A stretch of 64,000 bases of DNA, taken from assembly GCA_947628615.1 (NCBI GenBank), contig CANRAO010000002.1:51156-115155 (forward strand). Reading direction: 5' to 3'. The notes under the pieces are model-generated. The model was not told where the DNA came from. It saw only the letters and a list, made by a program, of their open reading frames with translations, and did no database searches. The translations under genes were made by a program, and so were the position numbers. Origin of the DNA: an uncultured Clostridia bacterium (GTDB lineage: Bacteria > Bacillota > Clostridia > Oscillospirales > Ruminococcaceae). This document shows, piece after piece, positions 2,648-46,549 of the stretch. Every line of letters starts with the position of its first letter. Positions within the stretch are counted from its first letter, which is position 1.

Positions 2648-5600
2648 TCATTTAACCTTAACTTTCTTTGCTTTCTTAATCCAACTGCTGTAAGCCTTCC
2701 TCGACTTTCCTTTTGAATCTTTATAAGTAGCATATGCTCTTACCCTTACAAAGTAGGTCTTTTTACTCTTAATTTTGCTTCCCTTTATTGTTATTTTTTT
2801 CTTTTTTGTATACTTATCATATAATGGTTTCTTAAACTTATTCTTTTTGGAAACCTGTATATTATATCCTTTAGCTTTACTAACCTTTTTCCAGCTTACA
2901 ATTATCTTTTTCTTTGTCTTGCTCTTTACTTTAAGCTGTGTTATCTTTGCCTGCCTCATTGCATTTTCTGCCTTGAGTTGTGAAGCAGTTTTTGTTACTT
3001 TTACAATTGAAGATGCTTTTGGTTTATCCGTAATCCTTGCAGTTGTAGGCACTGTTGATGTCTGTGCAGGTGTATTGTCCGATTTTGATGAATCTGATGA
3101 TGATTCTGACGATTTTGACGGCTCTGTCGGATTAGTCGGTATATATGTACCCAGATCATCAATAGCGGCCTTCAGCTTATCTATAACCGCTGTCCTCTGA
3201 TTATCATCTGCTGAAGCGTTATTGTAGACGTCTACAAGATCTTTGTATGCCGTTTCAAACTGCTCCCACTGACTACTGCTGTAATTAGCATTTTTCTTGA
3301 TTGATGCAGCATCAAACAGAAGTTCCTTAACTTCTCCGCTTTTATTCAAAACCATATTGCTATATGCTGTTGCAAATTCATCATATACGGCTTTTTTGCG
3401 GTCATAATTAGTCTTTGAATTATAAAGTGCAGACTTCAGTGTACTCAGCTTGGATTTCATTTCAGAATACCCGCTGACGCAATCACTTGAATCTAATGCT
3501 TCACATTTTATAATCGCCTGATTAAATTTTACCATATCCAAAGCATAAACATCTCTTGCAACATAGGTATAGCCCTTGTTATCTCCTCCATTAAAAAATA
3601 CTTTAATCCATTTTTCGCAATCATTGGCACTCCCAATATTTGCACCTGTTGGGAATCTAAGAAAATACTTATCTAAGTTAGGATAATACAAATTGTGAAG
3701 CTCTGCCATTATGTTCATAACACGACTAGGCTCGTAGCTGGTCTTAGCAAGGTCTTCAATATTATCGAAAACCTTTTGTGCAAAATCAGGATTCTGCATC
3801 AATTTGTAAACTAATGTCTGAATAGGATCATTGTTTCCTCTTCCGCCATTATAGATCTGATAAAGCTTGTCATTTTCAGGGCTTTCACCATCATTTCCCC
3901 AGAGGAATGCTCCCATCTCTACATCATAGAACATAAATCTCCATTTGCCGTCGCTGTACTTTCCTCCGGTCTCTGTATCAACTGTTCTTGTTCTCCAAAC
4001 TTCCCAGTTTTTACCCGACCAGTCTTCGTTTGAGATATATGTTTCCACTGCAACGTAATCGGCAAAGCTGTCTAAATCTATCATCTTAGAAATTTCTTCA
4101 TAATCCGCCTTCTTTGAAAAATCCTTTGAAGAATCCTTAAAATAGCTTACAAAATCATTCCAAAGAGTTACGTCCTCGTCCGTACCTTCCTCTATCTTGG
4201 GGGCATTATTGTTTTCAGTATCAGGCTTGATCATTACAACATTATCTTTATCAACGCCGAAATGACTTTGTGCATAGTCGTCGTTATAATCTTCCTGCAT
4301 AGTATAAATTCCCCAGTATTCGCCGTTTATAAATGCAATACAAGGAACGCTTGCCTGAGTTGAAAAATTCCTGTCAAGCACGCAGGTTTGCAAAAGTGAG
4401 TCTTTATACTTTACATAGTTAGCGTCATTACCGCCGTTTCTGAGTGTGATTTTCTTAAACGATGTAATAGAATTACCTTCTGTATCCTTTGCTTTGCCGT
4501 CAAAGAAATCATATTTAAAGCTCTTTTCACCGTAATCGCTTCTTGCATAAAGCCTGAGGCTCTTTTGATATTCTCCTCTTGAATATCCTCCCTGAATTCT
4601 TATACCGCATTCTTGTGAAAACACAGCTTCATTATTCTTTATGTAATCAATATGCACAGGTCTTTCCCATTCTTTACCCTTGTTAGTGCAGTTTTTCTGA
4701 AGATATATTCCGTTCTGATCGCCAAATAAATTATCTGCATCGGTAACAATAGACATTATCGGAACACCCGAATATGTTTCATTTGTCTTTCCGACAAAAT
4801 ATGATTTTGTAACAACATTACTTGAATCTCCGTTTTTAATAGCAACAGCTCTGATAACCGTAGCCTTATCGACCTTGACCGTAGGCGCATCACTTCTATC
4901 CCAGCCCCTATGGTCTCCGTCAGTTAATTTTTCCTTGCTTATTGCAGAAAGAACATTATCTTCACTGGTTCTGTCAACAACATTAATCTTTCCTTCATAC
5001 TTATTTGACTTGTCAGTAGGAGTGCTTCCGTCAGTGGTATAATATATTTCTGTACCCTCCTCTGCAGTGATCTCAAGATCAAAACTGCTTTCAAACGCAC
5101 CGCTCTCTCTTGAAAATTTCGGAGACTGTATAACCGACTTAGCATTATTATTGCTTTCACCCGGCGTTGGGAATACCACCTTGCAGTTCTCATCACCGTC
5201 AGGGATCCTTGCATAAGTAGTATCATCAACAAGAGAAGGCACAGTCAACTTATTTACACTTTCAGATGTACTTGAAAGCAAATCCAAATCCAAACCATCA
5301 CTCGAAATATTCATAGCAACATACGGCTTGGAGTCAACCATAGTCGCATCCAAATGACTATTGCAGTACAACACAAGGTAACCATTTGCCGGCACTACTG
5401 CAGTACCGTTAATGGTTTCTGTTTTATCCTTTGCATCCAAATCAATCTTTTTAACCTGATAACCGGATATATCTATTGCAGAACCGGTTGGATTATAAAG
5501 CTCGATCCAGTCGCAAAGCTCAGTTTTAGTTTCACCGTCTTTTTCATAAACTGCTTTGACATCTGTTAGATTTCCGTTTTCACCGCTGTTTCCAAGACAA

Positions 5601-5719
5601 ACCTCATTAATAACAATGCTTTCAGCCGCCGTACCAATTACAAATGCAGACATACTGATAGCTGTACAAGTTATTGCTGCAGCCGTTGCAAAGCTAGTTA
5701 TTTTCTTTAAAACACCCAT
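2648..5719 (-). CDS. Secreted CotH kinase-like protein: signal peptide, lamin-tail domain, CHB_HEX_C-like domain, CotH core, helical region, S-rich linker, Lys-rich FN3-like C-terminal module
   Basis: AGGAGG RBS and signal peptide MGVLKKITSFATAAAITCTAISMSAFV. LTD-like INEVC..WIELYNPTGSAIDISGYQV; FESSFDLEITAEEGTEIYYTTDGSTPT. The CotH-family core is long (LRLYARSDYG.., INGEYWGIYTMQE). The tail ends KGYNIQVS..YFVRVRAYATYKD..KVKVK. Confidence 0.85.
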   Translation of the reverse strand: MGVLKKITSFATAAAITCTAISMSAFVIGTAAESIVINEVCLGNSGENGNLTDVKAVYEKDGETKTELCDWIELYNPTGSAIDISGYQVKKIDLDAKDKTETINGTAVVPANGYLVLYCNSHLDATMVDSKPYVAMNISSDGLDLDLLSSTSESVNKLTVPSLVDDTTYARIPDGDENCKVVFPTPGESNNNAKSVIQSPKFSRESGAFESSFDLEITAEEGTEIYYTTDGSTPTDKSNKYEGKINVVDRTSEDNVLSAISKEKLTDGDHRGWDRSDAPTVKVDKATVIRAVAIKNGDSSNVVTKSYFVGKTNETYSGVPIMSIVTDADNLFGDQNGIYLQKNCTNKGKEWERPVHIDYIKNNEAVFSQECGIRIQGGYSRGEYQKSLRLYARSDYGEKSFKYDFFDGKAKDTEGNSITSFKKITLRNGGNDANYVKYKDSLLQTCVLDRNFSTQASVPCIAFINGEYWGIYTMQEDYNDDYAQSHFGVDKDNVVMIKPDTENNNAPKIEEGTDEDVTLWNDFVSYFKDSSKDFSKKADYEEISKMIDLDSFADYVAVETYISNEDWSGKNWEVWRTRTVDTETGGKYSDGKWRFMFYDVEMGAFLWGNDGESPENDKLYQIYNGGRGNNDPIQTLVYKLMQNPDFAQKVFDNIEDLAKTSYEPSRVMNIMAELHNLYYPNLDKYFLRFPTGANIGSANDCEKWIKVFFNGGDNKGYTYVARDVYALDMVKFNQAIIKCEALDSSDCVSGYSEMKSKLSTLKSALYNSKTNYDRKKAVYDEFATAYSNMVLNKSGEVKELLFDAASIKKNANYSSSQWEQFETAYKDLVDVYNNASADDNQRTAVIDKLKAAIDDLGTYIPTNPTEPSKSSESSSDSSKSDNTPAQTSTVPTTARITDKPKASSIVKVTKTASQLKAENAMRQAKITQLKVKSKTKKKIIVSWKKVSKAKGYNIQVSKKNKFKKPLYDKYTKKKKITIKGSKIKSKKTYFVRVRAYATYKDSKGKSRKAYSSWIKKAKKVKVK

Positions 5720-5924
5720 ATTTTCCTCCTAATATTCTAATAGTGATAATTCATAACCGGTCAATATTTTCCATAATAATTTTAATACTTGTATTATCAA
5801 CAAAAAAATAAATCAATATATAAAAACTATTATTTAAAATCTATAATCCGCTATCCTTATGATAAATAATAAAAAGTAATTTGTCAACACTTATTTTTAA
5901 TATTTTTTACAAATTCTATAATAC

Positions 5925-5961
5925 AAAATCCCGGCAAACTTTGATGGCTTGTCGGGATTTT
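5925..5961 (-). terminator. Intrinsic terminator downstream of adhesin paralogue A
   Basis: 13-bp stem aaaatcccggcaa/ttgtcgggatttt (one G-U pair) with T-runs on both strands. Confidence 0.7.
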
Positions 5962-6088
5962 GGCTATTCAATAAATAGCGTAATATAATATTAAATTTTA
6001 ATAATCACAACTTTGACAGTCCCAACTGCTGTCTCAGCTATGAAAGCTGAGACACAGCTATTGGTTCTGTCTAGTTTGGACAACTATA

Positions 6089-8225
6089 CCCACTGGGCAT
6101 ATATTTAGGAATATTTAGAAGGCTTTTATCTGCCGCCTTAGAAAACATCTTGCTTTCCAAAGGCAGAGTGTGTAGCTCTCTCTGCTACTTTACTTTTACT
6201 TTTCTGAGCTTCTTGTTCCATTTACTATATACTTTTTGAGCCTTTCCATTTATATCTTTGTACGTTGTGTACGCGCTCACCCTGACATAGTATTTCTTTC
6301 CGCTCTTGATCTTCTTAGTGATCTTTAAAGTCTTCTTTTTTGTGTGCTTGTCGAAGATGATCTTGCTCTTCTTGAATTTCTTGTTCGTTGATACCTGGAC
6401 TCTGTAGCCCTTGGCTTTCTTGACCTTCTTCCAAGATACTGTGATCGTCTTCTTTGCTTTGCTCTTTACTTTGAGCTTTTTAATCTTTGCCTGCCTCATT
6501 TGACTCTTAGCTTTTGCTTTTGCTGCTTTTACTGCATCTGCTTTGCTGGTTGTCTTTACAATAACATTATTATTTACCGGCGGCTTATTAACGTTAGTGC
6601 CGACATTATTGTTGTTATTGTTTACGCTAGGCTTTTCACTTGGACTCGTAGGTTTTTCCTTAAGTCCACTGATTGCTTCCTCTATGGCTGCTTTCGCTGC
6701 CTTGAGGTCTCTAACTGTTAAGTTAGAATTTTGTTTTGCTATTAATCCTTTTGCTTCATTAATGGTTTCTGATAGTTTTGCATAACTATCTTCTGTGTAT
6801 TTACTACTATCAATTGCTTCTGCTTCTTCTACTGCTTTACTTAATTCATCTTTAGCTGCTTGTATTGCATCTGTGTCTTTCTTAAGACCATTTACAGCGC
6901 TAGTGAGATTATCTGATGCTTCCTCTAAATCTGATACTTTTGAATCTACTGTAACACTCTTAGCTGCTTCTATTGCATCTGTCAATGCTTGATAGCTATC
7001 TGCTGTGTAGCTTTCTGAATCCAATGCCTCTGCGCTTTCTATTAACTTCTGCAAATCGCTCAGCATTTTTTCTTTATCTACCTCTTCAAGACGGTCAATA
7101 AATGTATTCAAATTACTTGCTGCATTAGTTATCGTTCCTCTGTCAGTTACACTTTCCAGATCATCAAGAATCGCCTTTGCAGCGTCATATGCAGCCTGCA
7201 ATGCTTCTATCTGACTTGCTGTATACTTATACTCCGGACCGTCATCAAGAATTGCTTTTGCTTTATCCACTGCTTCCTGAAGTGCAGGAACATAAGCACT
7301 GAAATCTGTTATTGGTACAAGCTTGTCATATGCTGCTTTTATCTGCTCCTTGAAGCTGTTCAACTGTTCTGACGATACTGCTCCGGTAAGTACAAAGGAA
7401 GTTGTGTATTTTTCTGCCAATTCCTTCTGCAGTTCTTCAAAACCTGAAGATGTCCATGAATCTTCTGTATAGTCTGCTTTGTTAGTATTAATATATGTAT
7501 TCATTTCAGCTATGAAAGCGTTTCTTTCCTCCGGAGAAGCTAAATCTGCAGTTAATACAAGTGCTTTTATACCTTCATCAAGCTTTGTTATTGCATCTGT
7601 TATATCTGTAATCTTTGCTGCCGGATCAGCATATACCTTCTTTGCATAATCATACAATGACATATCTGCTGTCTCATCTCCGTCAGTATCGATCACCTTA
7701 TCAGTGAATACAGATGCTGCATTCCGATGATAATCACCTTGATGAGTTTTTACCTCATCAGCCTGATCTATTACTGCCTTCAAACCGGTCTTCAGTGCTT
7801 CGTTAGGATCCTTTACCTGTACCTCTTTTACTGCAGTTGAACCCTTATATTCATCCGTACCATCTAAACTTGCTTTGATCCAATAGTGTCCTACAGCAAG
7901 GTCGTCAGAATTGTACTTATATGACGGACTGTCAGTACATTCTGCATTACCGTGAATCTCAAGTTTAACCTTATCCTTCAATTCAGCATTTTCAACATTG
8001 TCTAACTTTACAGTAACGCTTGGCTTAAATCCGCCCTTTGTTCCGTAGTTGATGTCAGCACAGTTGATTTCTATGCTGCTGGTTTTACGTTCGTCTGTCA
8101 AATCCTCTACGATCATGCTTTCAGGAACAGGTGCTGAGCCGCCTTTAGTTCCATCAACTATCTGTTGTTTAACACCTGAGTCTTTAACAACATGGATTTT
8201 GGCATCTGGAATATCTTTGAATGTC
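6089..8225. repeat. Direct repeat copy 1 (~2.1 kb), paired with 12159-14300
   Basis: 6185-7759 reads identical to 12259-13833 (first mismatches at 7760 and 7772). Identity is ~90% up to ~8225. The repeat includes ~96 nt of shared 3' UTR. Confidence 0.9.
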
Positions 8226-8695
8226 GTAAATGCTCTAGGTGCAAATCGACCATCAAATACCACACTTGATGCATATATATATATATCTTTTAATGTAGTT
8301 GAACAAGACTCAAAGGTACGATGTTTAATAGTGAGTATATCTTTACAAGTATATTCAACTTTTTCCAAAGAGTTCAAACCGCTAAAAGCTGACACCGCCA
8401 CAGAAAGAGTTGGTGAAGCAGTTTTAACTGTTCTTATAGTGTTTCCAGCGTTGTTTGTACCTAAAGTATTCAATGCAACTGGCAATATACCATTTAAACC
8501 ATCATTAAAATCTTCAGGTATCACTAAATCACTAACACCTGTTAAATCAACTTCACTTTTAAATGATGCTTCGTATACGCTCCCAATTTTTGTATACTGA
8601 AAATAAATGTCAGTATTTATAGCATTACCAGTTATTGTTATACACGATGTTACTAAAATTAATGATAAAACTAAAGATAAAACTTTTTTTAACAC
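6185..8695 (-). CDS. Surface protein paralogue A: probable lipoprotein signal, short BspA-type LRR head, Ig-like region, FIVAR-like helical repeats, N/P/S linker, Lys-rich FN3-like C-terminal module
   Basis: The ORF track runs to 8782, but AGGAG lies 10 nt before the in-frame GTG at 8695, giving (M)LKKVLSLVLSLILVTSC, a lipobox-like sequence. FIVAR-like YTADSYQALTDAIEAAKSV and YTEDSYAKLSETINEAKGL. The tail ends GYRVQVS..YYVRVSAYTTYKD..KVKVK. Confidence 0.85.
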   Translation of the reverse strand: MLKKVLSLVLSLILVTSCITITGNAINTDIYFQYTKIGSVYEASFKSEVDLTGVSDLVIPEDFNDGLNGILPVALNTLGTNNAGNTIRTVKTASPTLSVAVSAFSGLNSLEKVEYTCKDILTIKHRTFESCSTTLKDIYIYASSVVFDGRFAPRAFTTFKDIPDAKIHVVKDSGVKQQIVDGTKGGSAPVPESMIVEDLTDERKTSSIEINCADINYGTKGGFKPSVTVKLDNVENAELKDKVKLEIHGNAECTDSPSYKYNSDDLAVGHYWIKASLDGTDEYKGSTAVKEVQVKDPNEALKTGLKAVIDQADEVKTHQGDYHRNAASVFTDKVIDTDGDETADMSLYDYAKKVYADPAAKITDITDAITKLDEGIKALVLTADLASPEERNAFIAEMNTYINTNKADYTEDSWTSSGFEELQKELAEKYTTSFVLTGAVSSEQLNSFKEQIKAAYDKLVPITDFSAYVPALQEAVDKAKAILDDGPEYKYTASQIEALQAAYDAAKAILDDLESVTDRGTITNAASNLNTFIDRLEEVDKEKMLSDLQKLIESAEALDSESYTADSYQALTDAIEAAKSVTVDSKVSDLEEASDNLTSAVNGLKKDTDAIQAAKDELSKAVEEAEAIDSSKYTEDSYAKLSETINEAKGLIAKQNSNLTVRDLKAAKAAIEEAISGLKEKPTSPSEKPSVNNNNNNVGTNVNKPPVNNNVIVKTTSKADAVKAAKAKAKSQMRQAKIKKLKVKSKAKKTITVSWKKVKKAKGYRVQVSTNKKFKKSKIIFDKHTKKKTLKITKKIKSGKKYYVRVSAYTTYKDINGKAQKVYSKWNKKLRKVKVK

Positions 8696-8797
8696 TACTA
8701 AACAACTCCTTAGAAAATTAATATATCTCATATATATGATTATTTCTGTGACATTATGATAAATACCACAGAAAATAATCATATTTATAAAAGAAAT

Positions 8798-8829
8798 ATA
8801 TTAGGCATATTAATTAATATGCCTAATAT
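8798..8829 (-). terminator. AT-rich perfect palindrome, probable terminator of the GH5 gene
   Basis: atattaggcatattaa/ttaatatgcctaatat forms a 16-bp stem, followed on the minus strand by atttctttt. Confidence 0.55.
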
Positions 8830-8838
8830 TATTAATTT

Positions 8839-10911
8839 CTAAGTAGCTGATGTAGGATTAGGGTTAGGATTAGGATTAGGGTTAGGGTTAGGATTTTGAT
8901 CGTATCCAGCAATAATTGAATCAACAATAGTCTGACCAGTTGTTGTAATTTTATTATTAATCCTATCAAATAATCCTGTTCCACCTACAGTAGTAACACC
9001 ATTATCCCAATAAGCAGTTACTATACCTAAATCTGCTGCATAATAATTTAACCAATAATCATAATTAGTTACCTGTACTAAATTATTACCAATAGTTCCA
9101 TCACTATTAGTAACAGATTTAAGCAAAGGACCATATTCACCTATGAAAACTGGCATACCTAAATTCCTTGCAAAATTGCTAATTGCGGTAAACTGAGCCT
9201 CCATATATGCTTTTCCACCGTATTCAGCATTTTCATCCCATATACTTGTACCATTTTCATATAGTGCAAAGGGTTGTGGATCATAATAATGAACATCAAG
9301 CATTAATCTGTCAGGTGTTGGATCTGCTGGCTTTGTGAATCCAGCAATGGTATAACCAATATTTGTAGCAAATCCTACAACCATCAATACACGGTCATCA
9401 TTATTTGTTCCTTCAGCATTACGTACAGCTTCAACAAATGCTGCATTAAGTGCATTTATATTGCTGTATTCATTTGCTGTTGGATTAGAAAAAGTATAAT
9501 TAGCAAGCTCATTAGCAGCCTCAAATACTAATTTTTGATCATAACCTGCAAAATTATTAGCTATATCTGTCCATACAGCTGCAAATTTGTTCTTGATTGC
9601 CTCAAATTCAGTACCTGTTTTGGTTATATCAATCCAACTTCCCGGTGTATTTAAATCACCATCATTATGGATATTGATTACAACGTACATACCAAGATTA
9701 TATGCATAGTTTACTACCTGCTGAATTCTTGCCATATAAGCGTCATCGATCTGGTTATTACCGTCAATCATATTCAAATATGAAATAGGTATTCTGACTG
9801 TATTAAATCCGGCTTCCTTTACAGCTTGAATAAGCTTCATAGTTGTTTTTGGGTTGCCCCAAGCCTTCTCATTAACACCCTTATCGTCAGATGCCTCAAG
9901 TGAGTTACCTAAATCCCAAGCAAGACCCATATTTGAAGCGATTGTTGAAGCCGTCTGTCCTGTTACAGGATTTGAAACTATGCCTTCAGTGTTATCATAT
10001 ACCTTAATCTCTGTAACTGTACACATATCATATGCAGCTATAAAGCTGGTGACAGAGTTAGGTACTTCTGTGGTAAAGGTATATGTGCCTTCTTCCAAAT
10101 CTACATAGTTTGGATCAACAGCTACATATATCATATTACCTTCATCATCAAGTTCGCCAGTTGGCAGCATGATTTCTGCTTGTGCAAAGTTACCCTGCTC
10201 ATCAACGCTCTCTTTTGCATATGTAACTGTTACGTCAATTGTTGGATTTGTCCATGCATTCAAATCAATTGCGGTAACCTCAATGTTCCACTCATTACCA
10301 CTAACTGTTGCTGCACCTGTAGGGTTTACTGTGAAATTACTTGCAGTACCCTTAGTCCAGCTACCTGTAGCGGTAAATGGCTTCTGAACATATTCGCCTG
10401 ATATTAAATCAAGTGATACTATAGTTACCTCTGATGTACCAAGCTGTGCTCCTGTCTGAAGGTTAATACCATAAGGTGTTGCACCCTCTGCAAGTTTGCT
10501 CTCAATTACTGAAATAGGAACATTTACTGTGTATTCCGTTCCTGCAACAGGAGTTCTACCACCTGTCTGATCATATCCGTTAGGACCTATTGTTGTTCTG
10601 TTCCAGCCACCCCAGGCTGTGTCGTATACAAGGAACTCGAAAGTATCATTGTATCCAACATCAGGTTCACCTTCCTGAGGTTCTGCCGGTGTTCCTACAA
10701 CATCATACTTAAACGTGATCTGGAATGCAGAATCCTGATAATATTGAGTTCTTGGGTAATTACCAATGAAAGTTGCATTACCTGTGAATGGGCCCTCATT
10801 TGAAATAAGGTTTGTATCAGCGTTTGCGCTTAACGATGTGCCTCCAATGAGACTTGTTGCTGCTAATGCTGTTGCAGCAACACATGAAAGCAATTTTTTA
10901 AACTTTCTCAT
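8839..10911 (-). CDS. Secreted glycoside hydrolase family 5 endoglucanase (cellulase) with an unassigned ~330-aa N-terminal region and a terminal (PN)n linker
   Basis: GGAGG RBS and signal peptide MRKFKKLLSCVAATALAATSLIGGTSLSANA. GH5 motifs NTVRIPISY, FEAANE (acid/base) and IGEYG (nucleophile). The protein ends PNPNPNPNPNPNPTSAT*. Confidence 0.85.
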   Translation of the reverse strand: MRKFKKLLSCVAATALAATSLIGGTSLSANADTNLISNEGPFTGNATFIGNYPRTQYYQDSAFQITFKYDVVGTPAEPQEGEPDVGYNDTFEFLVYDTAWGGWNRTTIGPNGYDQTGGRTPVAGTEYTVNVPISVIESKLAEGATPYGINLQTGAQLGTSEVTIVSLDLISGEYVQKPFTATGSWTKGTASNFTVNPTGAATVSGNEWNIEVTAIDLNAWTNPTIDVTVTYAKESVDEQGNFAQAEIMLPTGELDDEGNMIYVAVDPNYVDLEEGTYTFTTEVPNSVTSFIAAYDMCTVTEIKVYDNTEGIVSNPVTGQTASTIASNMGLAWDLGNSLEASDDKGVNEKAWGNPKTTMKLIQAVKEAGFNTVRIPISYLNMIDGNNQIDDAYMARIQQVVNYAYNLGMYVVINIHNDGDLNTPGSWIDITKTGTEFEAIKNKFAAVWTDIANNFAGYDQKLVFEAANELANYTFSNPTANEYSNINALNAAFVEAVRNAEGTNNDDRVLMVVGFATNIGYTIAGFTKPADPTPDRLMLDVHYYDPQPFALYENGTSIWDENAEYGGKAYMEAQFTAISNFARNLGMPVFIGEYGPLLKSVTNSDGTIGNNLVQVTNYDYWLNYYAADLGIVTAYWDNGVTTVGGTGLFDRINNKITTTGQTIVDSIIAGYDQNPNPNPNPNPNPNPTSAT
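8854..8895 (-). repeat. In-frame hexanucleotide repeat (7 units of AGGATT/AGGGTT) encoding the (PN)n tail of GH5
   Basis: The + strand reads aggatt agggtt aggatt aggatt agggtt agggtt aggatt, which translates as PNPNPN.. on the minus strand. Confidence 0.9.
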
Positions 10912-11084
10912 AGTCTAATCCTCCTATCTGATTAAATATTTAAAAAATTGACTTCGTTCTCCGGCATAAATGCTCTAGAATCAATTATGCCTTCAAACTT
11001 GAGCGCGTCGCCGTAAACTATTGTCTGCGGCTACAATTAAATAGTGCATCGGTTAACCTTATCTTTATTTAATTGTCTGATTTT

Positions 11085-11113
11085 ACATTAATATATTATC
11101 CTTTTAATGTCAA
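11085..11113 (-). promoter_or_regulatory. Candidate sigma-A promoter of the GH5 gene (TTGACA-17-TAATGT)
   Basis: Minus strand reads TTGACAttaaaaggataatatatTAATGT, ~170 nt upstream of the GH5 ATG. The -10 element is only moderate. Confidence 0.4.
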
Positions 11114-11119
11114 TAAACT

Positions 11120-11150
11120 TGTCCCGAAATTCCATTTTATGTCTCGAAAT
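11120..11150 (-). promoter_or_regulatory. Pair of direct repeats (TGTCCCGAAAT / TGTCTCGAAAT, 20-nt period): candidate LytTR-regulator binding site
   Basis: Repeats at 11120-11130 and 11140-11150 match at 10 of 11 positions. They end 6 nt upstream of the candidate -35 and are adjacent to the LytTR regulator gene. Confidence 0.4.
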
Positions 11151-11262
11151 AACAAAATTAGCATATGTATTTTATATAAAATTTCCTAGTAATTTGTCGA
11201 TATTTTGGTCATTTCATTACCTTTTTTCAGCTTTATTCTAAAATTTTTGCCCTATCCTTTCT

Positions 11263-11967
11263 TTATAACTCCTCTACCTTCCTTTTGTATGTCGCTTCGA
11301 ATTCCTTCGACCGACCTTTCGACAACGGTATTTCATCATCGTTGTTCATAAATATTTTTTCATTCCTTATGTATGTCTTGATTTGCGATAAGTTTACTAT
11401 GTGACTTCTGTGCGGCATGAAAAAATCAAAATTGCTGAGTTCTGAATATATTTCGTTTATTATTCCTCTGCATATATAATCATTGTCATTAGTTATTACT
11501 ATTACCTCTCTCTTTTTCGTTCCGCAGGATATGTACATTATTTTGTCCGCAGATATTAGTATTTCCCTGCCGTTTAATTGCTTGAATTTTATTACGTCTT
11601 TCCTTAGAAAGTTCGCAAACCTTAGATAATCTTCTAATATCCTGCTTATTTCTGTTTCCTTGCACGGCTTTTGTATGTAGTCGAATGCGTGAACTTTATA
11701 TGCCTGTTTTAAGTATTTAAAATTGTCGGTTATAAATACTATCTGTACTTGCGGATCAATTCTTCGTATTCTTCTTGCCAGTTTTATTTCTTCTATTCCC
11801 TTTATTTCTAAAAAAATCAAATTGAATCTAATGTGAGTTTGTAATAACTCTTTTCCGTCAGTATAAGTGAATACGTGTACCTCTGCATTAAATTTTGGAG
11901 CATCTCTATATAGGATTTCAGTTATTCCTTTTGCCTCCTCATTATCATAAACAGCAATTCTATACAT
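11263..11967 (-). CDS. LytR/AlgR-family response regulator (REC-like + LytTR DNA-binding domain) with an atypical receiver
   Basis: GGAGGG RBS before the ATG at 11967 (MYRIAVYDNEE..); the ORF-track start at 12015 lacks an RBS. LytTR domain has HRSHIVNLSQIK. The receiver has FLEIKG where the LD(I/V)xMP phospho-acceptor is expected. Confidence 0.85.
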   Translation of the reverse strand: MYRIAVYDNEEAKGITEILYRDAPKFNAEVHVFTYTDGKELLQTHIRFNLIFLEIKGIEEIKLARRIRRIDPQVQIVFITDNFKYLKQAYKVHAFDYIQKPCKETEISRILEDYLRFANFLRKDVIKFKQLNGREILISADKIMYISCGTKKREVIVITNDNDYICRGIINEIYSELSNFDFFMPHRSHIVNLSQIKTYIRNEKIFMNNDDEIPLSKGRSKEFEATYKRKVEEL

Positions 11968-11986
11968 ATTATCACCCTCCAAAAAC

Positions 11987-12015
11987 ACTATACCAAAATT
12001 ATACAAGAAATTCAA
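11987..12015 (-). promoter_or_regulatory. Sigma-A promoter of the LytTR regulator gene (TTGAAT-17-TATAGT)
   Basis: Minus strand reads TTGAATttcttgtataattttggTATAGT, ~20 nt upstream of the RBS. Confidence 0.55.
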
Positions 12016-12084
12016 TACATCATTATCTATTTTTTGATATTTTTTGCAAAATTTTTATTTATTATTTACAATTATTATAAAATA

Positions 12085-12113
12085 AAGGTGAGTACCTTTA
12101 CAGTACTCACCTT
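12085..12113 (-). terminator. Second (distal) intrinsic terminator downstream of adhesin paralogue B
   Basis: 11-bp stem aaggtgagtac/gtactcacctt followed by tattttat on the minus strand. Confidence 0.65.
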
Positions 12114-12118
12114 ATAAA

Positions 12119-12156
12119 AAACAGCGTCTGAACCATCCCCGATTCAGACGCTGTTT
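12119..12156 (-). terminator. Proximal intrinsic terminator of adhesin paralogue B
   Basis: 14-bp stem aaacagcgtctgaa/ttcagacgctgttt followed by tttttt on the minus strand. Confidence 0.8.
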
Positions 12157-12158
12157 GC

Positions 12159-14300
12159 CCCACTGGGCATATATTTAGGAATATTTAGAAGGCTTTTATC
12201 TGCCGCCTTTGGAAACCATCTTGCTTTCCAAAGGCAGAGTGTGAGTGGCGTCACGCCACTACTTTACTTTTACTTTTCTGAGCTTCTTGTTCCATTTACT
12301 ATATACTTTTTGAGCCTTTCCATTTATATCTTTGTACGTTGTGTACGCGCTCACCCTGACATAGTATTTCTTTCCGCTCTTGATCTTCTTAGTGATCTTT
12401 AAAGTCTTCTTTTTTGTGTGCTTGTCGAAGATGATCTTGCTCTTCTTGAATTTCTTGTTCGTTGATACCTGGACTCTGTAGCCCTTGGCTTTCTTGACCT
12501 TCTTCCAAGATACTGTGATCGTCTTCTTTGCTTTGCTCTTTACTTTGAGCTTTTTAATCTTTGCCTGCCTCATTTGACTCTTAGCTTTTGCTTTTGCTGC
12601 TTTTACTGCATCTGCTTTGCTGGTTGTCTTTACAATAACATTATTATTTACCGGCGGCTTATTAACGTTAGTGCCGACATTATTGTTGTTATTGTTTACG
12701 CTAGGCTTTTCACTTGGACTCGTAGGTTTTTCCTTAAGTCCACTGATTGCTTCCTCTATGGCTGCTTTCGCTGCCTTGAGGTCTCTAACTGTTAAGTTAG
12801 AATTTTGTTTTGCTATTAATCCTTTTGCTTCATTAATGGTTTCTGATAGTTTTGCATAACTATCTTCTGTGTATTTACTACTATCAATTGCTTCTGCTTC
12901 TTCTACTGCTTTACTTAATTCATCTTTAGCTGCTTGTATTGCATCTGTGTCTTTCTTAAGACCATTTACAGCGCTAGTGAGATTATCTGATGCTTCCTCT
13001 AAATCTGATACTTTTGAATCTACTGTAACACTCTTAGCTGCTTCTATTGCATCTGTCAATGCTTGATAGCTATCTGCTGTGTAGCTTTCTGAATCCAATG
13101 CCTCTGCGCTTTCTATTAACTTCTGCAAATCGCTCAGCATTTTTTCTTTATCTACCTCTTCAAGACGGTCAATAAATGTATTCAAATTACTTGCTGCATT
13201 AGTTATCGTTCCTCTGTCAGTTACACTTTCCAGATCATCAAGAATCGCCTTTGCAGCGTCATATGCAGCCTGCAATGCTTCTATCTGACTTGCTGTATAC
13301 TTATACTCCGGACCGTCATCAAGAATTGCTTTTGCTTTATCCACTGCTTCCTGAAGTGCAGGAACATAAGCACTGAAATCTGTTATTGGTACAAGCTTGT
13401 CATATGCTGCTTTTATCTGCTCCTTGAAGCTGTTCAACTGTTCTGACGATACTGCTCCGGTAAGTACAAAGGAAGTTGTGTATTTTTCTGCCAATTCCTT
13501 CTGCAGTTCTTCAAAACCTGAAGATGTCCATGAATCTTCTGTATAGTCTGCTTTGTTAGTATTAATATATGTATTCATTTCAGCTATGAAAGCGTTTCTT
13601 TCCTCCGGAGAAGCTAAATCTGCAGTTAATACAAGTGCTTTTATACCTTCATCAAGCTTTGTTATTGCATCTGTTATATCTGTAATCTTTGCTGCCGGAT
13701 CAGCATATACCTTCTTTGCATAATCATACAATGACATATCTGCTGTCTCATCTCCGTCAGTATCGATCACCTTATCAGTGAATACAGATGCTGCATTCCG
13801 ATGATAATCACCTTGATGAGTTTTTACCTCATCTGCCTGATCTATCACTGCCTTCAAACCGGTCTTCAGTGCTTCGTTAGGATCCTTTACCTGTACCTCT
13901 TTTACAGCTGTTGAACCCTTATATTCATCCGTACCATCTAAGCTTGCTTTGATCCAATAATGTCCTACAGCAAGGTCGTCAGAATTATATTCTAAGGCTC
14001 TTCCAGTACATTCACTATTATTATACATAGCCAATGTAACCTTATTCTTCAAATCAGCATTTTCAACATTGTCTAACTTTACAGTAACGCTTGGTTTAAA
14101 GCCGCCCTTTGTTCCGTAATTGATATCAGCACAGTTGATTTCTATGCTGCTGGTTTTACGGTCGTCTGTCAAATCTTCAATGATCATGCTTTCAGGAACA
14201 GGTGCTGTACCGCCTTTAGTTCCATCAACTATCTGCTGTTTAACGCCAGAGTCTTTTACAACGTGGATTTTGGCATCTGGAATATCTTTGAAAGTCATAA
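12159..14300. repeat. Direct repeat copy 2 (~2.1 kb), paired with 6089-8225
   Basis: See copy 1. The offset is 6,070 nt at the 3' UTR and grows to 6,074 nt at the stop codon, through a 1-nt and a 3-nt indel. Confidence 0.9.
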
Positions 14301-14775
14301 AGGCCATTTTACTAGTCCTAGCTACAGTAAAACTTACAGAAGAAGCATATATATATATATTTTTTAAAGTTGTAGAGCATTGAGAGAAAGTTAAAGCTGA
14401 AAACTCCAAATCATTTTTATTTGTATATCTAACCTCTTGTAAAGCATTTAAACCACGAAAAGCCGTTGCACCAAGAGATGCACTAGATGAAGAAGTTTTA
14501 ACAGAAGTAATACTATTGTTATTACTTAGACTAGCACTATTTAATTTTACATCCGCTTCACCATGACTATCATCATTATATTTATCAGGGAAATCTAAAG
14601 ATGTTATACTAGAAAAATCTTTACTTCCATTTAAAGAAGCTAAATAATAACCACCAGATGCATAACTAAAAGAAAAATAATCTAACTCCGTTGATGACGC
14701 ATACATAGCCCCTGTCAGCGATGTAACTGCCATTGTCGCAGCTGCTACAATGGATAAAAGTTTTTTTATAATCAT
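12259..14775 (-). CDS. Surface protein paralogue B: type-I signal peptide, divergent LRR head, then a body and Lys-rich C-terminal module identical to paralogue A
   Basis: The likely start is the ATG at 14775 (MIIKKLLSIVAAATMAVTSLTGAMYASS); the ORF track extends to 14832. The C-terminal ~525 aa (from ..QADEVKTHQGDYHRN..) are identical to paralogue A. Confidence 0.85.
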   Translation of the reverse strand: MIIKKLLSIVAAATMAVTSLTGAMYASSTELDYFSFSYASGGYYLASLNGSKDFSSITSLDFPDKYNDDSHGEADVKLNSASLSNNNSITSVKTSSSSASLGATAFRGLNALQEVRYTNKNDLEFSALTFSQCSTTLKNIYIYASSVSFTVARTSKMAFMTFKDIPDAKIHVVKDSGVKQQIVDGTKGGTAPVPESMIIEDLTDDRKTSSIEINCADINYGTKGGFKPSVTVKLDNVENADLKNKVTLAMYNNSECTGRALEYNSDDLAVGHYWIKASLDGTDEYKGSTAVKEVQVKDPNEALKTGLKAVIDQADEVKTHQGDYHRNAASVFTDKVIDTDGDETADMSLYDYAKKVYADPAAKITDITDAITKLDEGIKALVLTADLASPEERNAFIAEMNTYINTNKADYTEDSWTSSGFEELQKELAEKYTTSFVLTGAVSSEQLNSFKEQIKAAYDKLVPITDFSAYVPALQEAVDKAKAILDDGPEYKYTASQIEALQAAYDAAKAILDDLESVTDRGTITNAASNLNTFIDRLEEVDKEKMLSDLQKLIESAEALDSESYTADSYQALTDAIEAAKSVTVDSKVSDLEEASDNLTSAVNGLKKDTDAIQAAKDELSKAVEEAEAIDSSKYTEDSYAKLSETINEAKGLIAKQNSNLTVRDLKAAKAAIEEAISGLKEKPTSPSEKPSVNNNNNNVGTNVNKPPVNNNVIVKTTSKADAVKAAKAKAKSQMRQAKIKKLKVKSKAKKTITVSWKKVKKAKGYRVQVSTNKKFKKSKIIFDKHTKKKTLKITKKIKSGKKYYVRVSAYTTYKDINGKAQKVYSKWNKKLRKVKVK

Positions 14776-14991
14776 AAAAATCAACCTTTCTTTAATAAAA
14801 AAATTGCAGGCTAGTAATTTTGTAAACAACATTTAATTAATATATGCAAATCAGTTTTGCGGACAAAGCGCCTGCATACCTTATCCGTTATGCTGATATG
14901 CTGAAAAAACATCAATCACCCTCTTTGTTAAAAGCAGTAAATGCGGCATCACCCTCTTTTTTTTAATATAAAACAACATTGAGTAAAATAG

Positions 14992-15352: not shown

Positions 15353-15384
15353 ATAATAAAATTTTTATGAAATTAGGTGGTAAA

Positions 15385-15828
15385 ATGTCACGAGAAACAA
15401 TAGCAAAGGTACTAAGAAAATTAAGACTTCAGAGCGGATTAACAGCAAACGAAGTTGGAGCTATGATTGGTAAGAGCGGAAAAACGGTCAACGCATGGGA
15501 AAATAACAGAGGTCAGCCTGATGCAGATATGCTTATGAATTTATGTGATATATATAATGTAGAAGATATTCTGTCTGAGTTCAGAGAAGTTGAAAGAGAC
15601 GCATTTGCGGTATCACATCATGAAAAGGAAGTAGTATTGGCATATAGAGAGAACACTTCTATGCAGCCTGCGGTAGACAGACTTCTTGGTGTCGAGAAAT
15701 CAAAGAAAATAACAGTATACAAAGCTGCCCGCAGTGATAACAATACAGAAGAAGACGGTTATGTTGAGCTTACACAGGAGCAGGTTGACAGTCTTGTAAA
15801 CGCTCCCGAAACGGACGATGATTTTTAG
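15385..15828 (+). CDS. XRE-family repressor-like protein (ImmR-like) with an acidic C-terminal tail
   Basis: AGGTGG RBS before the ATG at 15385 (the ORF track starts at 15367). HTH: LRLQSGLTANEVGAMIGKSGKTVNAWENNRGQP. C-terminal tail ..NAPETDDDF. Confidence 0.8.
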   Translation: MSRETIAKVLRKLRLQSGLTANEVGAMIGKSGKTVNAWENNRGQPDADMLMNLCDIYNVEDILSEFREVERDAFAVSHHEKEVVLAYRENTSMQPAVDRLLGVEKSKKITVYKAARSDNNTEEDGYVELTQEQVDSLVNAPETDDDF

Positions 15829-15953: not shown

Positions 15954-16526
15954 ATGATTTACGGAAAATACAAAAATGCAAGAAATGCCGCATGGCAGTG
16001 TCTTATTGATTATAATGTAAAATCACTACCTGTTTCGGTATTGAGCATTGCAAAATCGGCAGGAATCAAAGTTATAAAAAAAAGCAAGGCAAACAAGGAT
16101 TTACTTTTGCCTTATTTGAGCGGTATTAGTTTTTTAATAGGAAATCAGTGGTACATAGTATACAATGATAACAGTACCCGTCAGCGAAACCGATTTACCG
16201 TTGCGCACGAGCTTGGGCATATCTTTCTCGGTCACGAGTTAGAAAAGAGAAATCAAATGACGCAAGCGTTCATGAAGTCAGAATCCAATGCTGAACAGGA
16301 AGCGAACATATTTGCCTCAAGACTGTTAGCACCGGCATGCGTTTTATGGGCGCTTGGCTTAAAAAACTCAACTGAGATTGCGTCTGTCTGCGATATTTCT
16401 CACACAGCGGCAAAATTTCGTGCCGAGCGAATGGAAACGCTTTACAAGCGTAACAGATTTCTTATAGCGCCTCTTGAAAGAGAGGTATACAACAATTTTA
16501 AGACATTTTTACAAAATTGCAAATAA
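15954..16526 (+). CDS. ImmA/IrrE-family (COG2856) zinc metallopeptidase
   Basis: HExxH motif in FTVAHELGHIFLGHE. Its size and its position directly after an XRE gene are typical of the family. Confidence 0.8.
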   Translation: MIYGKYKNARNAAWQCLIDYNVKSLPVSVLSIAKSAGIKVIKKSKANKDLLLPYLSGISFLIGNQWYIVYNDNSTRQRNRFTVAHELGHIFLGHELEKRNQMTQAFMKSESNAEQEANIFASRLLAPACVLWALGLKNSTEIASVCDISHTAAKFRAERMETLYKRNRFLIAPLEREVYNNFKTFLQNCK

Positions 16527-45597: not shown

Positions 45598-46422
45598 TTA
45601 TTTTATATACGCTCCCGAAACCTCTGAATATGTTTTGCAGAAACGATAATAATTTATCTTTCCATTTGTCATATCGTCCTCAACCTGAGGGTCGAAAACA
45701 TAAGTATCTCCATTAAGTTTAACCTCTGTCCACATATGGTAACTGTAACCTCCAGCCGCCATTGCAGTACTTCCGTCAACTGTTTTCGCATTAAAACCCA
45801 GATACTTCATCATTGCCATAAATACATAAGAATACTCTGTACAAGTTCCAAAACCCTTTTCAAGAACTGATTCTATAGCGTTTCCCCAGCCCCCATATGC
45901 GTAATGTGTATTATTTATTAGGTAATCATAACATACTTTAGCCTTTTTATAGTTTGACATATCATCATCTATAATTTTATTCAGATGATTTTTCAGAATT
46001 TTTTCATCTTTACCTTTAAGAAATTCTTTGGGCTTCAACTCAGCGGAGTTAAGTCTGTTTTTTTCTATACTGTTTGTCTTTTTATATGTATTTAATTTGT
46101 TTTTTGTCTTAACTTTCTTTCCATTTTTAGACTTACTTCTAATAGCCGATTTCTTTTTGATTTTAGTTTTCTTTTTTCTTTTTAAATTGATTTTATTATT
46201 TCTTGACTTTTTTCCTTTTCCAATTTTTTTGTTGCTTCCCTCTATTTTAAATTCCGTGCTAACGACTGTCGCTGCTACATCGTCAGAGCCAGATTTTCCG
46301 TTAAAGCTCAAAATGCTTATCCCCTGAAACATAGAAACTGCAACAAGCATTGCCGCTACGCAAGCAATTATCTTTTCAAAATTCTTAAAGAAATGCAATT
46401 TAACATAAGATAGTATTCTCAT
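45598..46422 (-). CDS. Membrane-anchored transglutaminase-like (Cys-His-Asp) domain protein with a Lys-rich spacer
   Basis: GGAGG RBS 6 nt before the ATG at 46422 (MRILSYVKLHFF..); the ORF track starts at 46452. Transglutaminase-core-like GFGTCTEYSYVFMAMM..YSYHMWTEV..VFDPQ. K-rich tract KKIGKGKKSRNNKINLKRKKKTKIKKK. Confidence 0.75.
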   Translation of the reverse strand: MRILSYVKLHFFKNFEKIIACVAAMLVAVSMFQGISILSFNGKSGSDDVAATVVSTEFKIEGSNKKIGKGKKSRNNKINLKRKKKTKIKKKSAIRSKSKNGKKVKTKNKLNTYKKTNSIEKNRLNSAELKPKEFLKGKDEKILKNHLNKIIDDDMSNYKKAKVCYDYLINNTHYAYGGWGNAIESVLEKGFGTCTEYSYVFMAMMKYLGFNAKTVDGSTAMAAGGYSYHMWTEVKLNGDTYVFDPQVEDDMTNGKINYYRFCKTYSEVSGAYIK

Positions 46423-46549
46423 TTCAATCCTCCAATCACGAGTGATTTTCACTCTGTCTCAAAATAATTACACGTTTTTTATGTTTTAACATCTGCACAA
46501 AAACAGTAACCAGCTGTTTTCCTTAAAGTGTTTTCGATATTCTATAGCA

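Follow-up and report, generated by a model that had tools for sequence, protein, structure and literature searches.

A lysine-rich fibronectin type III tail as the candidate successor of dockerin in a lineage of uncultured Ruminococcaceae

Cationic modules that bind the cell wall non-covalently include the GW modules of Listeria InlB and Ami and the basic anchors of Lactobacillus S-layer proteins. In the Bacteroidota, many unrelated secreted proteins end in the C-terminal domain (CTD) of type IX secretion, a strictly C-terminal β-sandwich of ~80-100 residues, and LytTR regulators of the AgrA/ComE/PlnC type act on paired direct repeats located just upstream of the -35 box. Single cohesins with a transmembrane (TM) anchor are known in ruminococci (PMC13463774), and ScpH of Streptococcus sanguinis has, behind FIVAR, a Lys-rich C-terminal tail in place of the LPXTG anchor, and this tail binds extracellular DNA (bioRxiv 10.64898/2026.05.25.726231). 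Here we describe a lysine-rich terminal fibronectin type III (Fn3) module, termed K-Fn3, encoded in the genome of an uncultured Clostridia bacterium (GCA_947628615.1; G000 in our comparison), starting from a 64,000-nucleotide stretch of contig CANRAO010000002.1 (positions 51,156 to 115,155; hereafter the window). Five open reading frames (ORFs) lie head-to-tail on the minus strand of this window and encode, in order of transcription, Adhesin B (AdhB), a LytTR response regulator, a glycoside hydrolase (GH) family 5 enzyme, Adhesin A (AdhA), and a CotH-like protein; AdhB, AdhA, and the CotH-like protein end in K-Fn3.

A first-pass annotation of the window had proposed these five genes as a dockerin-free island for fibre adhesion and degradation, governed by its own LytTR regulator. 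Pfam domain calls on the window ORFs support the presence and identity of all five consecutive, same-strand genes, four of which encode a signal peptide, the regulator being the exception. The G000 assembly comprises 1.86 Mb in 44 contigs at 93% completeness and its relatives are metagenome-assembled genomes (MAGs) from the rabbit gut; the comparison set consisted of G000 and 18 genomes labelled as the same genus (n = 19). These data favor, at a probability of about 0.62, an overall explanation in which K-Fn3 would serve as a general surface-display tag, the functional successor of dockerin, alongside a conserved LytTR-GH5-adhesin cassette.

A lysine-rich Fn3 module at the end of exported proteins

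The last ~105-110 residues of the CotH-like protein, AdhA, and AdhB constitute one common module. In the CotH-like exported protein (2648-5719, minus strand) it occupies positions 2651-2980, the last ~110 residues, with 35% Lys and an isoelectric point (pI) of 10.8, as delimited by tblastn, hidden Markov model (HMM) searches, and alignment. It is preceded there by a signal peptide, an LTD domain, an Fn3_assoc/CHB_HEX_C region, a CotH domain (PF08757; 115.9 bits over profile positions 1-311 of 322), and a Ser/Thr/Pro-rich linker, and itself gives a weak Pfam fn3 match. AdhA (6185-8695, minus strand) comprises a lipobox-type signal, a diverged head, an Ig-like region, three FIVAR domains, a linker, and a K-Fn3 tail at 6188-6517. 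AdhB (12259-14775, minus strand) comprises a type-I signal peptide, a weakly LRR_5-like head, three FIVAR domains, and a K-Fn3 tail at 12262-12591. In both adhesins Pfam also gives a weak fn3 match. The earlier description as leucine-rich repeat (LRR)/FIVAR adhesins holds for FIVAR, present three times in each, but the LRR heads are weak: LRR_5 has no match in AdhA and falls below the cut-off in AdhB (E = 0.006). A fourth K-Fn3 protein, with BspA-type LRR_5 and a FIVAR-like region ahead of the module, is encoded at 62369-64000 (minus strand), and the module is therefore not tied to the five genes.

Across all six-frame ORFs of G000, tblastn and an iterated HMM place the module at the very end of 42 ORFs, with no more than nine residues between module and stop codon in all but one, in which the distance is within 20. 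Among these ORFs, one encodes an ordinary multi-Fn3 protein with 18% Lys; in the other 41 the module contains 25-38% Lys and has a pI of 10.1-11 (about 10.7), on protein bodies that are mostly acidic (pI 4-5). A simple heuristic predicts a signal peptide on all but one of these 41 proteins, the exception lying on a short contig. Each cargo protein carries a single copy, strictly C-terminal and of uniform length (~100-110 residues), and the cargo itself ranges over seven GH5 enzymes, one GH59, many BspA-type LRR_5 proteins, the CotH-like protein, one CAP protein, one β-helix protein, one metallophosphatase, and several large unknown proteins.

An AlphaFold2 (AF2) model built from an alignment of 25 copies reached a predicted local distance difference test (pLDDT) score of 92.3, and the top 50 matches of a Foldseek search of the PDB with this model were all Fn3 domains (TMq 0.5-0.67). 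The conserved positions other than Lys (W29, Y38, Y76, and Y83) are those of the Fn3 core, and Pfam fn3 (PF00041) scores the module at 23-44 bits, around its 25-bit cut-off. From the model, the structural matches, and the core residues we confidently predict that the lysine-rich module adopts a true Fn3 fold. No NCBIfam model covers the tail. A profile search of 1.84 billion representative proteins gave 44,995 matches, dominated by long multi-Fn3 proteins, and is uninformative on the Lys-rich terminal form. We found no account of such a module in the literature searched, a search that was incomplete, so that an earlier description may exist elsewhere.

A strictly terminal β-sandwich of uniform length (~100-110 residues), borne by dozens of unrelated signal-peptide proteins, would also suit a C-terminal sorting signal, recognized by a dedicated export or attachment machine and then removed or covalently processed in the manner of the type IX CTD. 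The latter, however, belongs to another phylum with another envelope, and cleavage is not seen for K-Fn3. The cargo carries ordinary Sec signal peptides; moreover, no candidate machinery was identified, nothing resembling the type IX secretion system having been seen although none was specifically sought. G000 encodes a single sortase, but the tails contain neither an LPXTG-like sortase motif nor a hydrophobic segment and end in ...KVKVK. A sorting signal is thus an extremely improbable account of the module. Pfam scans of ~30 K-Fn3 proteins also returned no match to SLH, LysM, GW/SH3_8, CW_binding_1/2, ChW, or WxL.

A transglutaminase-like protein elsewhere in the window (45598-46452) had been connected to the island through its Lys-rich tract. 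That tract proved to be a Lys/Asn/Ser-rich, low-complexity linker of ~70 residues following an N-terminal anchor, with no K-Fn3 module, and we rejected the protein as a member of the system.

K-Fn3 and dockerin across nineteen genomes

Pfam searches with Dockerin_1 (PF00404) and Cohesin returned no match in the whole 1.86-Mb G000 assembly. Within the comparison set, twelve genomes (G000, G002-G005, G007, G009, G011, G012, G014, G017, and G018) encode 31-52 K-Fn3 modules each and 0-3 dockerins, and seven (G001, G006, G008, G010, G013, G015, and G016) encode 7-26 dockerins and 0-3 weak modules (E 1e-9 to 1e-11). Counts of modules and dockerins per genome run from 42/0, 50/0, and 52/0 at one extreme to 1/20, 0/26, and 3/19 at the other, and the few dockerins in G004 and G005 belong to another type, generic or atypical. 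K-Fn3 and dockerin are mutually exclusive across the 19 genomes. The module is absent from six other genera of the family, five of which also lack dockerin, the exception being G022 with one; the rest of the order has between 0 and 69 dockerins per genome.

The proposal that the Lys-rich module occupies the position of a dockerin is borne out by the sister species, which bear dockerins on the same CotH, LRR_5/FIVAR, GH59, and GH5 cargo. The dockerin proteins retrieved from G010 include one with LTD, Fn3_assoc/CHB_HEX_C, CotH, and dockerin, one with LRR_5, four FIVAR domains, and dockerin, and one with LRR_5, FIVAR, and dockerin, together with three LRR_5-dockerin proteins, a GH59 enzyme with GH59_C and dockerin, and a C1 peptidase with dockerin. 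The CotH-like protein of the window is 49% identical to the G010 CotH protein over residues 5-764, after which the former continues into K-Fn3 and the latter into dockerin; the GH59 enzymes of G000 and G010 are 47% identical over 910 residues. For eight of the ten G010 dockerin proteins with any match in G000, the best match is a K-Fn3 protein, and the alignments end before the tag. We placed 76 GH5 catalytic domains, taken from eight genomes, in a maximum-likelihood tree; enzymes with dockerin and enzymes with K-Fn3 are intermingled within well-supported subfamilies (e.g. 98/89 and 100/97), which forces at least seven tag changes.

Because both tags interleave in the same GH5 subfamilies, the C-terminal tag appears to have been exchanged gene by gene across the secretome, on bodies that are orthologous or closely paralogous. 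By these alignments, K-Fn3 takes the very position that dockerin has on the corresponding proteins of sister species, and the swap appears to be lineage-wide, with the island as one sample of it. It is thus very likely that K-Fn3 is the lineage's surface-display successor of dockerin. The alternative display architecture proposed for the island therefore gains strong support from comparative genomics as far as a dockerin-free tag is concerned, but it is a property of the lineage (~41 proteins in G000) rather than of the island.

In a tree of leucyl-tRNA synthetase (LeuRS), the K-Fn3 species group closely, at 92-99% identity, in a single clade with 100/99 support. The LeuRS of the dockerin species is 63-65% identical to that of G000, and four genomes labelled as other genera are closer, at 69-77%. 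The LeuRS tree fails to recover the 'same genus' grouping, which suggests that either the genus label or the history of this gene is inconsistent. For this reason, the polarity of the switch, from dockerin to K-Fn3, is one we infer solely from the wide occurrence of dockerin in the order.

The LytTR-GH5-adhesin cassette

The gene between AdhB and GH5 encodes a LytTR response regulator of 234 residues (11263-11967, minus strand; likely start ATG 11967, within an ORF that extends to 12015), in which Pfam identifies a receiver and a LytTR domain. The LytTR domain (PF04397) scores 59.1 bits against a cut-off of 22.6 and is highly conserved in seven orthologues; the receiver fold matches at 35.7 bits and its pocket is degenerate. 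The acceptor position holds Glu in three genomes (G000, G007, and G003), Asp in another three (G009, G005, and G012), and Gly in G011, and the receiver loop is shortened in G000, G007, and G009. No kinase gene adjoins the regulator, its neighbors being an adhesin gene and the GH5 gene. Two LytTR paralogues in G000 have canonical receivers (DDE...FLDIDMP) and adjacent GHKL kinases (HATPase_c_5). With no adjacent kinase and a degenerate acceptor, set against two canonical and kinase-linked paralogues, the regulator is rightly termed an orphan, as had been proposed.

A candidate LytTR operator and GH5 promoter lie at 11085-11150 (minus strand). Two 11-nt direct repeats of the form ATTTCGRGACA, ATTTCGAGACA at 11150-11140 and ATTTCGGGACA at 11130-11120, are separated by a 9-nt spacer, giving a 20-nt period; after a further 6 nt they are followed by the -35 box TTGACA (11113-11108), 17 nt, and TAATGT (11090-11085). 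Allowing up to two mismatches per half-site, the pair is unique in the genome but for one much weaker match at C1:215358, with two mismatches in each half, which we take to be chance. When the LytTR-GH5 spacers of seven species are aligned, the repeats and the -35 box are near-invariant and their flanks have diverged. This arrangement resembles that of AgrA, ComE, and PlnC in pairing a LytTR domain with two direct repeats that lie about two helical turns apart and abut TTGACA. It differs in the dimensions of the repeats (11 nt with a 9-nt spacer, as opposed to 9 nt with a spacer of 12-13), in the absence of cognate kinase or peptide genes, in an acceptor that may be E, D, or G, and in having a glycoside hydrolase as its target.

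The order K-Fn3 adhesin, LytTR, GH5, adhesin is syntenic in G003, G005, G007, G009, G011, and G012, and no LytTR gene was found within 1.5 kb of the GH5 orthologues of the dockerin clade. These features are best read as a LytTR protein that activates the GH5 promoter independently of a kinase, a reading towards which we lean. In the overall explanation favored here, the region would be a conserved cassette of adhesin, LytTR, and GH5-adhesin with the CotH gene beside it. An orphan and probably phosphorylation-independent LytTR protein would activate the untagged GH5_4-type gene, and possibly the adhesin gene behind it, via the two 11-nt repeats, and the flanking adhesin genes would be kept alike through gene conversion.

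The GH5 leader is ~170 nt long. It contains two palindromic words, GGTTAACC (11058-11051) and TCTAGAGC (10979-10972), that are invariant or nearly so in the seven species, within surroundings that vary; these may be further operator sites. A riboswitch or other RNA leader was considered for this 5' untranslated region and rejected, as it matches no Rfam family and shows no conserved RNA fold, and the conserved boxes are palindromic DNA words.

The view of the five genes as one self-contained island, all LytTR-controlled, draws on their adjacency on one strand, on the retention of the complete order AdhB-LytTR-GH5-AdhA-CotH in the closest relative, G007, and on the conservation of LytTR-GH5-adhesin in six species. 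The signals between the genes speak against it. Two strong, consecutive intrinsic-terminator hairpins after AdhB (12085-12150, minus strand) separate that gene from the LytTR gene, which is preceded by promoter-like sites of its own; terminator-like hairpins follow AdhA; and a strong promoter-like site upstream of the CotH-like gene (5859-5887, minus strand; TTGACA-17-TATCAT, 11/12) suggests that this gene is a separate transcription unit. Furthermore, GH5 is the only gene preceded by the repeat pair, which is present a single time in the genome; among the examined loci, CotH is a neighbor in G007 alone; and the tag is found on ~40 unlinked genes. The AT-rich palindrome and T-run between GH5 and AdhA (8798-8829, minus strand) is weakly terminator-like, and read-through from GH5 into AdhA is possible. 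Given these terminators and separate promoters, the island does not appear to be one operon, and a self-contained unit wholly under LytTR control is very unlikely. Of the proposed LytTR control, the link to GH5 stands, through synteny and the repeat pair, and control of AdhB or CotH is unsupported, in view of their separate terminators and promoter.

The GH5 enzyme (8839-10911, minus strand) consists of a signal peptide, an N-terminal domain of ~300 residues with no family match, a catalytic domain (residues 346-638), and a bare (PN)7 tail. Its catalytic domain matches PF00150 at 167 bits, with the acid/base NE in FEAANEL and the nucleophile in FIGEYGP. The closest PDB structure is the xyloglucanase 2jep (E 4e-68), and its neighbors are GH5_4 xyloglucanases and broad-specificity endoglucanases; we predict a subfamily-4-like glucanase. 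The enzyme carries neither K-Fn3 nor any other docking tag, and untagged orthologues occur in all 18 relatives, in both clades; the suggested coupling of a cellulase to the display architecture is thus unsupported, the cellulase being the untagged member. The idea that a GH5 tag was lost on insertion of AdhA was likewise rejected, since the orthologues in both clades are of the same length and untagged.

The two adhesin genes, with likely starts at 8695 (GTG) for AdhA and 14775 for AdhB inside ORFs of 6185-8782 and 12259-14832, share a direct repeat of 2.1 kb. One copy lies at 6089-8230, with 100% identity over 6191-7690 decaying to ~50% by 8575, and the other at 12159-14301 (minus strand), the 3' 2.1 kb of AdhB. 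Within a genome the adhesin paralogues are 100% (G000, over 6191-7690), 98% (G007), and 96% (G012) identical, as opposed to 80-81% between G000 and G007 over the same stretch. As the paralogues are alike within genomes and differ by ~19-20% between genomes, the adhesin genes appear to undergo concerted evolution by gene conversion. Identity between G000 and G007 is uneven along the syntenic block (LytTR 98.7%, the flanking amidase 98%, CotH 85%, GH5 72%, adhesins 60-67%), which is the pattern expected of fast-evolving surface proteins.

The signal of AdhA is of lipobox type (..LILVTSC; 8640-8695), compared with an ordinary signal peptide in AdhB (14700-14775); the two may be attached differently at their N-termini, with the C-terminal tag in common. 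Elsewhere in G000, two LRR_5, FIVAR, and K-Fn3 proteins of ~1,700 residues, with 8-11 LRR_5 stretches each, are encoded on different contigs (C2:215190-220235 and C7:12993-18098). Their signal peptides are near-identical, with one substitution in the first 40 residues, and the two may represent one more case of recent duplication or conversion.

Directly upstream of AdhB, a small XRE-type ORF on the minus strand (15209-14993) has a perfect TTGACA-17-TATAAT promoter. It points away from an HTH_3 gene (15367-15828) whose promoter is perfect too, and an M78/IrrE peptidase gene (15954-16526) comes after the latter. The segment 14993-16526 is an ImmR/ImmA-like switch, typical of mobile elements. 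At the other end of the five genes, the L20 leader is weakly matched at 2373-2564, with 28 bits where the gathering score is 58.7 (E 0.053). A bidirectional terminator hairpin (2525-2554) lies within the matched stretch, and the match is probably due to chance.

Candidate receptors for K-Fn3

Of the seven dockerin species, six have a gene detected by Pfam Cohesin (one each, but three in G001), and the K-Fn3 species have none. The product in the dockerin clade is ~245 residues long and runs from a signal peptide through a single cohesin and a linker to a C-terminal TM helix and a basic tail. Since this cohesin is membrane-anchored, the system being replaced would be a surface tether. G000 encodes a counterpart of the same architecture outside the window, a 229-residue protein at C10:17986-18672. 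Exactly one cohesin-type gene per genome was found in 19 of 19 genomes, and none in the six other genera. The copies of the K-Fn3 species (hereafter K-class) are 65-100% identical to that of G000, and the dockerin-class copies 24-28%. The claim that dockerin and cohesin are both lacking is accordingly sustained by the genome-wide Pfam search, which had no match, but not by this remote cohesin homologue. The possibility, raised at the outset, that the genome encodes a normal cohesin-dockerin system is half realized, with a putatively cohesin-derived membrane anchor present and dockerins absent.

Pfam does not recognize the K-class protein; hhalign aligns K-class to dockerin-class over the whole domain at 97.5% probability (E 7.5e-12). 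With the K-class profile no match was obtained among PDB sequences, and with the dockerin-class profile marginal cohesin matches (E 0.14-0.34). In a collection of 5.8 billion proteins, K-class falls into 50 clusters, each of them 60-90% identical, and none bears a name or a Pfam match. The stalk carries a net charge of -5 to -16 in K-class versus 0 to -6 in the dockerin class. The gene neighborhood of K-class is fixed and of housekeeping type, comprising purL, a 246-residue membrane protein, the cohesin-like gene, an aminotransferase, and carB. The membrane protein (~246-264 residues in different genomes; C10:17040-17831 in G000) has two TM segments and no Pfam match, and its gene is always divergently adjacent to the K-class gene.

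We propose that Sec-exported acidic cargo (GH5, GH59, BspA-LRR/FIVAR, CotH, and CAP proteins) would be retained at the surface of the producing cell by its polycationic tail, which would bind an acidic surface receptor. The first choice for this receptor is the single membrane-anchored cohesin-like protein with its acidic stalk, with direct binding to polyanions of the wall or membrane nearly as likely and the two modes compatible. The cohesin-like protein is favored because a single conserved copy is kept in all genomes of the K-Fn3 clade despite the loss of dockerin, and because its divergence between the clades is about double that of other surface proteins (~25% identity, against 49% for CotH and 45-50% for the island GH5). 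As the docking receptor of K-Fn3 it nonetheless stays a tentative candidate, rated at somewhat less than even odds. A fuller version, in which the cohesin fold was re-targeted such that the divergent membrane cohesin and K-Fn3 form a new cognate docking pair that displaced cohesin-dockerin secretome-wide, is a fair possibility, though less likely than not.

Such a system would be closest to the minimal cohesin-dockerin display (PMC13463774), with which it shares dozens of Sec-exported GH, LRR, CotH, and CAP proteins bearing one C-terminal tag and one small protein per genome composed of signal peptide, cohesin-like domain, linker, and TM segment, the sister clade having cohesin-dockerin itself on homologous cargo. 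It differs in that the tag is a polycationic Fn3 β-sandwich of ~105 residues rather than a Ca-binding EF-hand pair of ~60, and in that the cohesin-type protein is ~25% identical to the canonical form, is missed by Pfam, and is a putative partner of the tag.

K-Fn3 might instead attach directly to bulk polyanions. These could be wall or lipoteichoic acids, acidic polysaccharide of the wall, anionic lipids, or extracellular DNA, and the cohesin-like protein would then have an unrelated role or be a slowly decaying relic. Every copy of the module has 25-38% Lys across its full length and a pI of ~10.7, and its conserved residues other than Lys belong to the Fn3 core, so that there is no obvious dedicated interface. 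Module-like matches also occur in two other genera, G025 and G037, without a cohesin-like gene. A precedent is offered by ScpH, in which FIVAR and a Lys-rich tail bind extracellular DNA, as the adhesins here combine FIVAR with K-Fn3. In both cases a canonical anchor is replaced by a Lys-rich, electropositive C-terminus after FIVAR, but the ScpH tail is unfolded and confined to one protease family, whereas K-Fn3 is folded, found on ~40 proteins, and replaces dockerin. GW and S-layer anchors (reviewed in PMC5817068) are likewise basic C-terminal modules on acidic secreted proteins, for which electrostatic binding to the envelope is plausible; K-Fn3 differs from them in its unrelated fold, its single copy as opposed to repeats, and its probable role as a proteome-wide dockerin substitute. 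Direct polyanion binding leaves unexplained, however, why a single cohesin-like protein (65-91% identity) persists in all K-Fn3 genomes after dockerin loss, and why it has diverged about twice as far as CotH and GH5. We consider it a serious possibility, albeit with the odds against it.

A third option is that K-Fn3 binds substrate or matrix, e.g. acidic pectin, mucin, or biofilm matrix, in the manner of a carbohydrate-binding module (CBM), on proteins that are released and do not anchor themselves. Fn3 and Fn3-like domains stand beside CBMs in many glycoside hydrolases, the charge of the module suits pectin or mucin, and the organism is from a herbivore gut. Nevertheless, the module occurs as often on non-enzymes with binding heads of their own (LRR_5, FIVAR, CotH, and CAP) as on GH5, it is single-copy and strictly C-terminal, and the dockerin that it replaced has a membrane-tethered cohesin as its only partner in the sister clade. 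Substrate binding is therefore an unlikely alternative to retention at the cell surface.

Returning to the general surface-display tag with its LytTR-GH5-adhesin cassette, several observations weigh against this explanation. The lysines are spread over the whole module rather than gathered in one patch, a better fit to unspecific polyanion binding, and the matches in G025 and G037, although weaker, number 8-12 and come without a cohesin-like homologue. The K-class and dockerin-class genes lie in different neighborhoods, and the former may not be the positional orthologue of the latter. The cohesin fold of K-class rests on profile homology, a single-sequence AF2 model having a pLDDT of 44. Moreover, every genome compared is a MAG, and since the LeuRS tree unites the K-Fn3 species in one clade, the switch of tag and the split of the cohesin would represent a single event on one branch rather than 19 independent ones, such that their correlation is suggestive but not statistical proof. 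At the locus itself, the island GH5 is an untagged gene and AdhB and CotH look separately transcribed, so that the LytTR regulon may consist of one gene.

Cellulosome-like display is defined by the pairing of cohesin with dockerin, and genome surveys rate fibre degraders by counts of the two. The K-Fn3 clade of gut Clostridia, although its cargo repertoire is that of a dockerin organism, would score zero, so that such counts can overlook a whole display system. The ~40 parallel module swaps amount to a natural experiment on the replacement of a proteome-wide targeting signal, and K-Fn3, being small, well-folded, and highly cationic, is a possible new anchoring or docking part. The LytTR-GH5 cassette offers a compact, testable case in which a LytTR regulator without a kinase is linked to an enzyme of polysaccharide degradation. 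Should the cohesin-like protein prove to be the partner of K-Fn3, the module would be the first natural non-dockerin partner of a cohesin, and the two would make up a pair orthogonal to the cohesin-dockerin pairs known so far.

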